From Shigella phage ESh21, in sequence record ON528731: a stretch of 64,000 bases of DNA; one strand, written 5' to 3'. Of the stretch, positions 43,879 to 60,312 are shown in pieces. Below the pieces are notes generated by a model, which was not told the origin of the DNA, did not search any database, and saw only the letters and a list, made by a program, of their open reading frames with translations. The translations under genes were made by a program, and so were the position numbers. Numbering within the stretch: position 1 is the stretch's first letter; each line of letters starts with the position of its first letter.

Positions 43879-43955
43879 CTCTGTTTAGCTCAGCTTGGTA
43901 GAGCGTTCCGTTTGGGGCGGTAAGGCCAGAGGTTCAAGTCCTCTAACAGAGACCA
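43879..43955 (+). tRNA. tRNA-Pro (anticodon TGG)
   Basis: manual cloverleaf: acceptor CTCTGTT/AACAGAG, T-loop TTCAAGT, CCA encoded. Confidence 0.7.
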
Positions 43956-43962
43956 AATTAAT

Positions 43963-44037
43963 GTCGTAGAAGGCAAATGGTTAGCCACCTGACCTTCAAT
44001 CAGTTGCTCGCGGGTTCGAATCCCGTCTACGACTCCA
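43963..44037 (+). tRNA. tRNA, anticodon probably TTC (Glu), tentative
   Basis: acceptor GTCGTAG/CTACGAC, T-arm GCGGG-TTCGAAT-CCCGT, CCA encoded; anticodon loop CCTTCAA has C at position 33. Confidence 0.55.
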
Positions 44038-44122
44038 AATTTGACAGAAGACCAAATACAGCAAACAACTTTTACTTTTCGCGCATAGAAAACATAAAAA
44101 GCTTGGTCTGGTCATTAAGAAT
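44038..44122 (+). repeat. structured inter-tRNA spacer element (family CAGAAGACC...GGTCTGG), copy 1
   Basis: begins right after CCA; conserved ends shared with copies at 44200, 44604, 44685. Confidence 0.6.
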
Positions 44123-44199
44123 CGCGGGTATAGAGAAAGGGCGTCTCACATGTCTCATTAGCATGGCAACGGTTGGTTCGACTCCAACACCCGCCTCCA
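44123..44199 (+). tRNA. tRNA with anticodon CAT (Met or Ile2 or fMet)
   Basis: anticodon arm CATGT-CTCATTA-GCATG, T-loop TTCGACT, CCA encoded; C1-C72 mismatch. Confidence 0.6.
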
Positions 44200-44282
44200 A
44201 ATTTACAGAAGACCGTTTACAGCAATTTAAAAACAATTTTATCGGAAAATTAAAATGAATACGGTCTGGTAATGTTAAACAT
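44200..44282 (+). repeat. structured inter-tRNA spacer element, copy 2
   Basis: AAATTTACAGAAGACCGTTTACAGCAATTTAAA...ACGGTCTGGTAAT. Confidence 0.6.
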
Positions 44283-44359
44283 GGTTAGGAAGCACATAAG
44301 GCATGTGCGGTCGGCTGTTAACCGAATGGCACAGGGTTCGAATCCCTGACTAACCGCCA
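44283..44359 (+). tRNA. tRNA-Asn (anticodon GTT)
   Basis: D-arm GCAC/GTGC, anticodon loop CTGTTAA, T-arm CAGGG-TTCGAAT-CCCTG, CCA encoded. Confidence 0.7.
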
Positions 44360-44369
44360 AAATTTAAAT

Positions 44370-44457
44370 GCGTCGTTATCCCGTAGATGGAAGCGGTGGC
44401 GACTGTAAATCGCTTGTCATTACGACTCGGTAGGTTCGACTCCTTCACGGCGCACCA
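44370..44457 (+). tRNA. tRNA-Tyr (anticodon GTA), long variable arm
   Basis: 88 nt; anticodon arm GGCGA-CTGTAAA-TCGCT; variable stem GTC/GAC; resembles E. coli tRNA-Tyr layout. Confidence 0.6.
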
Positions 44458-44463
44458 AATAAA

Positions 44464-44541
44464 GGTTATGTAGTTTAATCTGGTTAAAATACCTCCCTGT
44501 CACGGAGGAAGATGTGGGTTCGAGTCCCATCGTAACCGCCA
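44464..44541 (+). tRNA. tRNA-Asp (anticodon GTC)
   Basis: anticodon arm CCTCC-CTGTCAC-GGAGG, T-loop TTCGAGT, CCA encoded. Confidence 0.7.
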
Positions 44542-44603
44542 ATTTTGAGAAGGGCTTTTTTAGCCCCTCCCTTAAAGAGTTCTTGTGAGTATTCTTTAAA
44601 GGA

Positions 44604-44685
44604 GCAGAAGACCAAATTCAGCAAGCAACAAAAATATTTCAAGCCAATTAATTTGAAAAATTTAAAACTTGGTCTGGTTCCAACA
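44604..44685 (+). repeat. structured inter-tRNA spacer element, copy 3
   Basis: GCAGAAGACCAAATTCAGCAAGC...CTTGGTCTGGTTCC. Confidence 0.6.
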
Positions 44686-54336: not shown

Positions 54337-54714
54337 ATGGCATATCAAGGTTTTACTAAATTAGGTGAAAGAGAACCTCTGAATGATATCATTCTATGGG
54401 AACAGATTACACCAACTGGTCACTCTCGTAAAGAGTATGCTCCTGTAGCCAGCACAGAATACCGTGTAGGTGAAGTTCTGAAAGCTGACGGCTCTAAAGT
54501 AGCTGCTGGTCAAGAAGCTCAGGCTGACTCTGTTTGTATCGTAAACTTCTATGCAGACCTGCAACTGTCTTACCACGGTCAGTTGAAAGTTGTTGGCATT
54601 TACCGTGACGCTGAACTGAAGGACATGCTTACACTGGAAGACAGTGTTGATGCTGCTGCTGTTAAGTCTGCCCTGAAAGCAAAAGGTATTGATTTCGTAC
54701 CAACTGGCCTGTAA
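54337..54714 (+). CDS. head decoration protein (lambda gpD-like)
   Basis: 125 aa between protease and major capsid protein. Confidence 0.5.
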   Translation: MAYQGFTKLGEREPLNDIILWEQITPTGHSRKEYAPVASTEYRVGEVLKADGSKVAAGQEAQADSVCIVNFYADLQLSYHGQLKVVGIYRDAELKDMLTLEDSVDAAAVKSALKAKGIDFVPTGL

Positions 54715-57777: not shown

Positions 57778-59130
57778 ATGTGGAATCCAATTGTTAATGT
57801 AGATATTACATTGAACACAGCAGGGACTACAAGAGAAGGTTTTGGTTTACCATTATTCCTTGCTTCAACAGATAACTTTGAAGAAAGAATCCGTGGTTAT
57901 ACTTCATTAACAGAAGTGGCTGAAGACTTTGATGAAAGTACTGCTGCATATAAAGCTGCAAAACAGCTATGGAGCCAAACTCCAAAAGTAACTCAACTGT
58001 ATATTGGTAGAAGAACTATGCAATATACAGTTTCTATTCCTGATACAGTTGCTGAAGGAAGTGAATATTCATTAACAGTTGCTATTGGTGGTGGTGTTTC
58101 TCAGCCATTCCAATACACTGCAAAAGAAAGTGACACAGCACTTATTGTCTTGAGTGAGTTTAAATCACAGATTGAAGCAAGCCCAACAATTAAAAATAGT
58201 GTGAATGTTAGTGTAACAGGTACTGGTGCTTCTGCGACGATGATTATTACTAAAGCTGGTGATAATGATTTCGTAAAAGTAACATCTATCACGGCTACAA
58301 CATCTATTGCAGCTACAACTGCTGACACAGCTTCCGCTGCTCTGGCGTCCATCGAAACTTATTCAACAGATTGGTACTTCATCTCAGCAGAAGACAGAAC
58401 TCAACAGTTTGTCTTGGCAATGGCTTCAGAGATTCAGGCTCGTAAGAAGATTTTCTTCACAGCTAATGCTGACGTTAAAGCTTTGCAAGGAACTGAATTA
58501 ACCTCTGCAACCGATGTTCCGGCACAGTTAGCTAAAAATAGGTACACTCGTACAGTTTGCTTGTGGCATCACACATCTGAGTATGACTACCCAGAAATGG
58601 CTTACATCGCATATGGAGCACCATATGATGCAGGTTCAATTGCTTGGGGTAATGCTCAATTAACTGGTGTTGCAGCATCTCTACAACCTGCTAACCGTAG
58701 ACCACTGACAAGTATTCAGAAGTCAGCTTTGGATACTCGTAACTGTAACTTCATTGACCTTGATGGTGGAGTTCCTGTAGTGCGTAGGGGTATCACTTCT
58801 GGTGGTGAATGGATTGATATTGTACGTGGTGTTGATTGGCTTGAATCTGATTTGAAAACATCTCTAAGAGACTTGCTAATTAACCAGAAGGGTGGTAAGA
58901 TTACTTATGATGATACTGGTATTACCCGTATTCGTCAAGTCATTGAAACCTCTCTACAAAGAGCAGTTAACAGAAACTTCCTGTCATCTTACACAGTTAA
59001 TGTTCCTAAAGCCTCTCAAGTTGCTTTGGCAGATAAGAAAGCTCGTATCCTGAAAGATGTTACCTTCGCAGGTATCTTAGCAGGGGCTATCTTGGATGTT
59101 GACTTGAAAGGTACAGTGGCTTACGAATAA
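57778..59130 (+). CDS. tail sheath protein
   Basis: 450 aa followed by 148-aa tube-like gene, chaperone pair and tape measure (myovirus order). Confidence 0.55.
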   Translation: MWNPIVNVDITLNTAGTTREGFGLPLFLASTDNFEERIRGYTSLTEVAEDFDESTAAYKAAKQLWSQTPKVTQLYIGRRTMQYTVSIPDTVAEGSEYSLTVAIGGGVSQPFQYTAKESDTALIVLSEFKSQIEASPTIKNSVNVSVTGTGASATMIITKAGDNDFVKVTSITATTSIAATTADTASAALASIETYSTDWYFISAEDRTQQFVLAMASEIQARKKIFFTANADVKALQGTELTSATDVPAQLAKNRYTRTVCLWHHTSEYDYPEMAYIAYGAPYDAGSIAWGNAQLTGVAASLQPANRRPLTSIQKSALDTRNCNFIDLDGGVPVVRRGITSGGEWIDIVRGVDWLESDLKTSLRDLLINQKGGKITYDDTGITRIRQVIETSLQRAVNRNFLSSYTVNVPKASQVALADKKARILKDVTFAGILAGAILDVDLKGTVAYE

Positions 59131-59145
59131 TAGAGGTAAATTGGA

Positions 59146-59592
59146 ATGGCTATGTATCAGCAATATTCCCCTAAAGACGTTGTATGTAGCTGGAACGGCA
59201 TTGCTATCGAAGGCTTTGCCCCAGACTCATTCTTGCGTCTACAGAGAACATCACCACTTGTTACACCAGTTGTAGGTGCAGGTGGTCAAGTAGCTCTGAC
59301 AAGAAATGCAGATAAGACAGGTACTATTGAGATTGAGCTAATGCAGACTTCTCTCTCTAACCAGATGCTTTCTGCAATTCAAGCTAAACAAGATGACATG
59401 GAACTTGAAGAAGATATCTCATCTAACTTTGTAATTTATGACCCATCTGGTTCAGTTCTGGCAACAGGTATCAATGCTTGGTTGCAAGAGCTTCCACAGA
59501 TTGAATTAGGTCGTGACCAGAACTCGAAAACTTGGATTTTCGGTTGTGAGAAGTTAGATTACACTTCAACAATCCCTGCATCAAGCGTTTAA
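59146..59592 (+). CDS. tail tube protein
   Basis: 148 aa between sheath and chaperone genes. Confidence 0.55.
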   Translation: MAMYQQYSPKDVVCSWNGIAIEGFAPDSFLRLQRTSPLVTPVVGAGGQVALTRNADKTGTIEIELMQTSLSNQMLSAIQAKQDDMELEEDISSNFVIYDPSGSVLATGINAWLQELPQIELGRDQNSKTWIFGCEKLDYTSTIPASSV

Positions 59593-59603
59593 CAAATCCT
59601 AAT

Positions 59604-59645
59604 AAGGGGGAGACTGTAAAAGGTCTTCCCCTTTTGTGTTTTTAT
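59604..59645 (+). terminator. hairpin (attenuator-type terminator)
   Basis: AAGGGGGAGACT...GTCTTCCCCCTT + TTTTGTGTTTTT. Confidence 0.5.
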
Positions 59646-59668: not shown

Positions 59669-60076
59669 ATGAAGACTGAAACAAAACATATTAATGGTAA
59701 GAAGGTGACGATTATCCTTCTTGGTGCAAGAGATGGTATCAAAATTTCTATGAAGCTTGGTAAGGTCGTTGTACCCACCTTTGCTCAGATGATTACCAGT
59801 CTTGCTGGTAAAGATGAGAATCCAGAAGCTCCTAAAGTTCCTTTCAAAGAACTGGTAGAAGCTTGCTTTGACAGAATTGATGAGTTAGATATTGACTCAA
59901 TGGCAGAATTACTATTTCAGGGGGCAACTGTTGATGACTTCCCACTGAAAATTGATAGTTACTTCCAAGCAAACTACGGTGAATTTATTGACTTCTTAGC
60001 CTTTGCTTTGGAGGCAAACTTCGGAAGTTTTTTCGAGGCAAGCATTTTCAAAAGCCTAACTTCTCAGGAAGCTTAA
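59669..60076 (+). CDS. tail assembly chaperone (G-like)
   Basis: 135 aa; contains slippery heptamer near 3' end. Confidence 0.55.
   Translation: MKTETKHINGKKVTIILLGARDGIKISMKLGKVVVPTFAQMITSLAGKDENPEAPKVPFKELVEACFDRIDELDIDSMAELLFQGATVDDFPLKIDSYFQANYGEFIDFLAFALEANFGSFFEASIFKSLTSQEA
60028..60034 (+). other. programmed -1 ribosomal frameshift site (T TTT TTC)
   Basis: X XXY YYZ heptamer in zero frame of 59669..60076; -1 frame is open from 60031 to 60312. Confidence 0.55.
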
Positions 60077-60084
60077 AGTATGTT

Positions 60085-60312
60085 ATGCAGACCCCGCTGA
60101 CTGACGGGGCTGTAGAATCAACTTATGAAGAAGCAGATGAGATGAAATTTGTGCTTGCCATTTATGGAATGGAAGGGTGTAAAGAAACACTCGACCAACT
60201 TTTCTCAATGACTTTCGTTGACCTATTATCTCTTCGTCAATATCTGGAAATCCAGAAGTCATACAAAGAAGAAATGGCCTATAACGAACTCAGAAAGGCA
60301 GGTAAAATTTAA
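60085..60312 (+). CDS. tail assembly chaperone frameshift extension (GT-like, T part)
   Basis: 75-aa ORF in -1 frame relative to upstream chaperone; likely expressed as fusion via frameshift. Confidence 0.45.
   Translation: MQTPLTDGAVESTYEEADEMKFVLAIYGMEGCKETLDQLFSMTFVDLLSLRQYLEIQKSYKEEMAYNELRKAGKI

Follow-up and report, generated by a model that had tools for sequence, protein, structure and literature searches.

The analysed window, a stretch of 64,000 nt from Shigella phage ESh21 (sequence record ON528731), belongs to a Mooglevirus, a FelixO1-like myovirus, and is 99.1% identical to Shigella phage ESh22; identity over the region is ~87-91% to Mooglevirus phages (Moogle, Mijalis, Sf14-Sf19), and FelixO1 is ~80% identical at the protein level. 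The tail genes are arranged in the order sheath (57778-59130, matching DUF3383 / PHROG 205), tail tube (59146-59592), a pair of short open reading frames (59669-60076 and 60085-60312), and tape measure protein (TMP, 60312-62546). Further upstream are the genes for the head maturation protease, the major head protein, and the neck and completion proteins, and 3' of the tape measure gene are those for a Dit-like protein and the baseplate plug. The initial annotation had assigned the genes flanking the short ORFs to a tail module, and this assignment is confirmed; the pair lies between the tube and tape measure genes. The features of the locus are listed below.

59146-59592 (+), tail tube protein gene, directly after the sheath gene (Pfam KPP10_Orf10 structural protein; PHROG 280)
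59669-60076 (+), short tail assembly chaperone gene ('G' equivalent), 135 aa (ORF, Pfam, PHROG)
60010-60014 (+), GGAGG resembling a Shine-Dalgarno (SD) sequence, with 13 nt between it and the heptamer; a candidate 5' stimulator of the dnaX type
60028-60034 (+), slippery heptamer T_TTT_TTC, predicted site of the -1 shift (sequence, conservation)
60034-60312 (+), -1 segment ('T' equivalent), 92 codons and stop, predicted to be read after the shift (translation, PHROG)
60035-60076 (+), dual-coding overlap: last 13 codons and stop in frame 0, predicted linker of the long product in frame -1
60085-60312 (+), 75-aa ORF as mechanically called, from ATG 60085
60312-62546 (+), tape measure protein gene (Pfam TMP_3; PHROG 4036, 1452 bits)

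The heptamer T_TTT_TTC sits in frame 0 of the 135-aa ORF (codons AGT|TTT|TTC, with a codon boundary at 60029), encodes Phe-Phe, fits the canonical X_XXY_YYZ, and is the sole in-frame X_XXY_YYZ within that ORF. It is followed by thirteen sense codons (60035-60073) and then by the TAA stop at 60074-60076, exactly the distance that the initial annotation had claimed. The final upstream stop of the -1 frame is at 59989-59991, and from 59992 this frame is open to the TAA at 60310-60312, taking in the 75-aa ORF; the earlier claim that the -1 frame is open from the heptamer through the downstream ORF thus also holds. A -1 shift at the heptamer would join 59669-60034 to 60034-60312 and yield a predicted fusion of 214 aa, made of 122 shared N-terminal residues and 92 new residues, with IDSYFQANYGEFIDFLAFALEANFGSFFR as the predicted fusion-specific tryptic peptide across the junction and IDSYFQANYGEFIDFLAFALEANFGSFFEASIFK as its zero-frame counterpart. 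Other routes into the downstream frame were considered and rejected: there is no further in-frame X_XXY_YYZ in the 83-nt joinable stretch (59992-60074), CAAAAG at 60049 is outside the slippery register, and the +1 frame, as a possible extension, closes within 28 nt past the stop.

The 135-aa ORF matched Pfam PF21822 (Phage_TAC_15) with 75.5 bits against a gathering cutoff of 22 (E=7.2e-21), residues 9-125 aligning on profile positions 1-124 of 127, and it also matched PHROG 1613, 'tail assembly chaperone' (E=5.5e-49). The C-terminal 75 aa of the predicted fusion matched PHROG 4963, likewise 'tail assembly chaperone' (E=3e-51). Furthermore, the profile of PHROG 3840 spans the predicted junction, with fusion residues 1-152 on profile positions 6-157 of 158, and its member sequences therefore include fusions joined there. 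The sequence search for solved-structure relatives returned none, the best E-value being 0.086 for an irrelevant match. At its 3' end, the stop of the -1 ORF overlaps the ATG of the tape measure gene in the sequence TAATG (60310-60314); the enteric clade retains this overlap, which is suggestive of translational coupling in the shifted minority of ribosomes.

Conservation was measured across 85 related loci of 23-100% protein identity, taken from GenBank records (Moogle, Sf17, ESh22, FelixO1, Mushroom, LPML1, and Pseudoalteromonas phage H101) and IMG/VR contigs. An in-frame T_TTT_TTY was present at the homologous F-F position in 85 of the 85 loci, in agreement with the conserved signal that had been claimed, and the -1 frame was open in all 83 evaluable loci, the other two ending at a contig edge. 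Among the close and intermediate loci, an in-frame TTTTTTC was found in 38 of 38 (TTTTTTT in H101), and 37 of the 38 carried an open -1 segment of ~92 codons ending at the tape measure start; L014 runs off the locus end after 80 open -1 codons. The heptamer and a long -1 extension were also present in 45 of the 47 distant IMG/VR loci (23-49% identity), the remaining two keeping the heptamer but reaching the contig end; one of the two peptide patterns with which distant loci were retrieved included 'FF', and this biases the dipeptide but not the use of TTT-TTY codons preceded by T. Depending on the locus, 8 to 44 codons lie between slip site and stop; the position of the heptamer in the protein is fixed, however, and in relatives of as little as 23% identity the slip site still falls at the same peptide position, N-F-x-x-F-F.

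To describe codon constraint around the slip site, the synonymous-difference fraction, i.e., the fraction of same-amino-acid pairs with different codons, was calculated over 34 unique Ounavirinae haplotypes. This fraction was 0.249 before the -1 frame opens and 0.198 where the -1 frame is open upstream of the heptamer; it was 0.000 at the two heptamer codons, 0.065 in the overlap after the heptamer, and 0.017 in the first ten codons of the -1 segment, and it rises again further downstream. These data indicate that the constraint starts at the heptamer, and not at the opening of the -1 frame nor at ATG 60085. The overlap stretch CGARGCAAGCATTTTCAAAARCCT is nearly identical even at ~45% protein identity, and the same is true of the 30-nt stretch AGTTTTTTCGARGCAAGCATTTTCAAAARCCT.

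The RNA on the 3' side of the heptamer yielded no stimulatory structure: 60035-60080 folds at -6.8 kcal/mol (z=0.09 versus shuffles), and the fold of 60035-60125 is not significant (z=-1.8). Shift efficiency may be low because such a structure is lacking. A hairpin at 60092-60109 was rejected as a frameshift stimulator, as it is ~58 nt downstream, which is too far, and is not conserved in FelixO1. On the 5' side, SD-like stimulators of -1 shifts act at a spacing of 9-14 nt (PMC5009743), and the 13-nt spacing of the GGAGG at 60010-60014 falls inside this range. The span 6-17 nt upstream of the heptamer was surveyed in 23 protein clusters at 60% identity, and GGAGG/AGGAG was found in 15 of the 23 against a background of 1.8%, an SD-like motif by the broader definition of Sharma et al. 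in 18 (background 13%), and GAG as the Glu codon within the element in 19 (background 43%), enrichments that are to be read with the shared ancestry of the clusters and the conserved peptide motif in mind. The motif persists whether the peptide reads L-E-A (ctG GAG Gca) or K-E (aAG GAG), and it is absent from the Erwinia-phage and LPML1-like Ounavirinae clades. The role of the SD-like element is uncertain because it is absent in these two clades and because it is partly forced by the conserved peptide motif; nonetheless, GGAGG is a plausible candidate for a frameshift stimulator. We would tentatively suggest, as a possibility somewhat short of a probability, that the Phage_TAC_15 frameshift uses a dnaX-like 5' SD stimulator that is under RNA-level selection and has been lost in some Ounavirinae clades. 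If true, frameshift efficiency, and with it the G:GT ratio, would depend on base pairing between mRNA and rRNA and not on the heptamer alone. No description of an SD stimulator for tail chaperone frameshifts was found.

A separate observation concerns 60019-60031 (+), where AACTT-CGG-AAGTT can form a 5-bp hairpin just 5' of the heptamer, overlapping its first bases. In the Erwinia and LPML1 clades the equivalent stem is retained with a different loop (AACTT-CTC-AAGTT), and the stem may simply reflect the N-F-x-S-F peptide.

Very probably, the tail assembly chaperone gene of this FelixO1-like (Mooglevirus) myophage is translated with a programmed -1 ribosomal frameshift of the G/GT type known from lambda. 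Under this model, most ribosomes would read 59669-60076 and produce the 135-aa chaperone, and a minority would slip with two tRNA-Phe on UUU (P site) and UUC (A site) of U_UUU_UUC, step back by one base, and re-pair with UUU UUU. Both slippery codons are read by tRNA-Phe(GAA), and after the -1 move both tRNAs pair with the cognate UUU. Reading would then resume in the -1 frame from 60034 (CGA GGC AAG ...) and continue to the stop at 60310-60312, giving the 214-aa fusion. The slip would depend on an intrinsically shifty heptamer, with no contribution from a 3' stimulatory structure. Sharma et al. placed H_HH.U_UU.Y heptamers among the ~15 most efficient in E. coli, and U_UU.U_UU.C gave >0.1% shift with no stimulator and is under-represented in E. 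coli genes (PMC4066793). By analogy with lambda, we infer that both products would coat the tape measure protein via their shared domain and that the C-terminal domain encoded in the -1 frame would recruit the tube protein, with the frequency of slipping presumably setting the ratio of short to fusion product. Both chaperones are expected to be missing from finished virions. A literature search on the fusion in FelixO1-like phages turned up neither protein-level data nor reporter assays in its support.

The window also carries 25 phage tRNA genes at 43879-48614 (+), equal to the 25 reported for Mijalis, and this cluster includes a tRNA-Phe(GAA) at 47609-47684, which decodes both codons of the slippery heptamer. 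In addition, a strong terminator-like hairpin of 12 pairs (6 G-C) followed by TTGTGTTTTT is located at 59604-59633 (+), in the 76-nt gap between the tube and chaperone genes; it may attenuate transcription, such that less chaperone and tape measure protein is made than tube protein.

A different reading of the locus involves no recoding, the 75-aa ORF being an independent gene started at ATG 60085 and the heptamer being incidental to a conserved Ser/Gly-Phe-Phe peptide. In ESh21, this ATG has AGGAAG 13 nt upstream, close relatives also have an ATG, and the Sf17, FelixO1, and ESh22 records annotate two separate CDSs; however, the downstream ATGs of the FelixO1 type have no SD, and three clades (LPML1-like, Erwinia phages, and H101) lack the ATG. 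In these, the -1 frame has its first ATG 37 codons past the slip (LPML1-like clade and H101) or 57 codons past it (Erwinia phages), yet the conserved -1 peptide begins directly after the slip. Moreover, a FelixO1-like contig (L025, IMGVR_UViG_3300045988_004167) carries a natural ATG>ATA change 13 codons past the slip, with the ORF and heptamer otherwise intact. From the missing ATG in diverged clades, the ATA in this contig, and the peptide that begins at the slip, it follows that the downstream segment is not generally an independent gene. The codon data point in the same direction, as the Phe and preceding codons show no synonymous variation across the 34 haplotypes (baseline 0.25), and the suppression of synonymous differences extends over the sequence ahead of the ATG. 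ATG 60085 is also within the stem of the predicted fold noted above, which, at z=-1.8, is not significant. The hairpin CCCCG-CTGACTGA-CGGGG (CCCCGCTGACTGACGGGG) at 60092-60109 (+) begins 5 nt after this ATG; its fifth pair changes from G-C to A-T in three loci, L005, L006, and L012 (CCCCA...TGGGG), a compensatory change, and the hairpin, absent in FelixO1, could mask independent downstream initiation or be incidental. The 75-aa ORF is thus probably not an independent gene, and, while some initiation at ATG 60085 in ESh21 is conceivable, a reading with no recoding at all is very unlikely.

The two ORFs could instead be joined at the level of the transcript, with RNA polymerase inserting an extra U at the T6 run in a subset of mRNAs. 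The run is homopolymeric, with 6 T here and 7-8 in some relatives, and UUUUUUU is avoided in all frames, possibly through slippage (Sharma et al., PMC4066793); however, the bacterial cases of transcriptional slippage have been described for runs of ~9 A or T (PMC5009743), and the run of only 6 T in ESh21 makes it unlikely here. Across 46 unique contexts the run is 6 in 30, 7 in 15, and 8 in 1, always in the X_XXY_YYZ register and with no drift to longer runs, and the SD-like element is enriched at the spacing typical of stimulators of ribosomal -1 shifts, which is irrelevant to RNA polymerase; transcriptional slippage is accordingly a highly improbable source of the fusion. As for a chance juxtaposition that has no function, 95 crudely called genes of the window, with 18,187 codon positions, contained 62 in-frame X_XXY_YYZ heptamers, and a lone in-frame heptamer therefore carries little meaning. 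Nevertheless, in only one of these 62 cases does the -1 frame continue far beyond the end of the zero frame (for 78 codons; the runner-up has 1 codon), and the persistence of this one in every locus down to 23% identity and its dual-coding signature also stand against coincidence. On these sequence comparisons, the chance reading is effectively refuted and retains almost no probability.

The G/GT-type class of tail chaperone frameshifts was reportedly defined by Xu, Hendrix and Duda (2004). G/GT-type frameshifting has been reviewed by Atkins et al. The initial annotation had proposed this type of arrangement for the ESh21 pair, and the sequence-level features tested, namely position, chaperone family of the upstream ORF, -1 frame, heptamer, conservation, synonymous-site suppression from the heptamer on, and the lack of a start in diverged clades, are in accord with the proposal. 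The lambda gpG/gpGT system itself is said to have been described by Levin, Hendrix and Casjens in 1993 and by Xu, Hendrix and Duda in 2004, 2013, and 2014. Lambda and ESh21 share overlapping ORFs between the major tail and tape measure genes and a -1 shift, predicted in ESh21, on an X_XXY_YYZ heptamer close to where the first ORF ends; the absence of a strong 3' structure at the ESh21 site is a further likeness. The two differ in that the heptamer is G_GGA_AAG in lambda and T_TTT_TTC in ESh21, in that the ESh21 chaperone is of the Phage_TAC_15 family and serves a contractile-tailed myovirus whereas lambda is a siphovirus, and in the candidate upstream SD-like stimulator of ESh21. Lambda produces gpG and gpGT in a fixed ratio of ~30:1; each of them binds the tape measure protein, and it is through the T domain that the major tail protein is brought in (PMC5009743).

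Contractile tails and a chaperone pair with a -1 frameshift, very probable in ESh21, upstream of the tape measure gene are common to phage P2 and ESh21. The -1 frameshift of P2 gpE/E+E' was reportedly described by Christie et al. in 2002; gpE/E+E' also uses a T-run heptamer, but it belongs to a different protein family from the ESh21 chaperone. The efficiency of the P2 frameshift is 2- to 3-fold above that of lambda (PMC5009743). E. coli dnaX resembles ESh21 in having a slippery heptamer with an internal SD-like sequence ~10-13 nt upstream. At dnaX, there is also a strong 3' stem-loop and ~50% of ribosomes shift; the stem-loop has no counterpart in ESh21, where the role of the SD-like sequence is putative.

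The closest parallels are Citrobacter phage Moogle, Mijalis, and Mushroom, which encode an orthologous pair (83% protein identity) with the same heptamer, flanks, and gene order; compared with these, the short ORF of ESh21 is two residues longer, with a 3-nt indel before its stop, and there is no other difference of note. The frameshift in this gene pair has already been annotated and published for the genus and is not new. It is stated in the genome announcements of Moogle and Mijalis (PMC4319497, PMC5543628), and a joined CDS is annotated in Moogle (CPT_Moogle67/68) and Salmonella phage Mushroom (FDH40_gp069/070). The records of ESh22, Sf17, FelixO1, and LPML1 have two separate CDSs or omit the second ORF, a matter of inconsistent annotation and not of differing biology. 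The main value of the analysis is in annotation. In the nearest genome (ESh22) and several RefSeq records, the pair is entered as separate genes or 'hypothetical proteins', although a joined, frameshifted CDS would be the right entry. The frameshift pair also gives firm footing to the placement of its neighbours in the tail module. The candidate SD-like stimulator across the Phage_TAC_15 family is the sole mildly new element in an otherwise well-understood mechanism, and the current view of phage tail assembly and recoding is unchanged.

Two further observations concern records and neighbouring genes. GenBank OK283618.1, 'Listeria phage LPML1' (L036), is classed in the Ounavirinae, and ~130 nt of its slip-site region are nearly identical to an IMG/VR locus (L031); the -1 ORF carries no annotation in this record. 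The LPML1 tail module groups with those of Erwinia/enterobacterial FelixO1-like phages, which casts doubt on a Listeria host. In ESh21, a 125-aa ORF at 54337-54714 (+), between the head maturation protease and major head protein genes, matches PHROG 4146, 'tail protease' (E=3e-76), an odd label for a gene located where one would look for a head decoration or scaffold protein.
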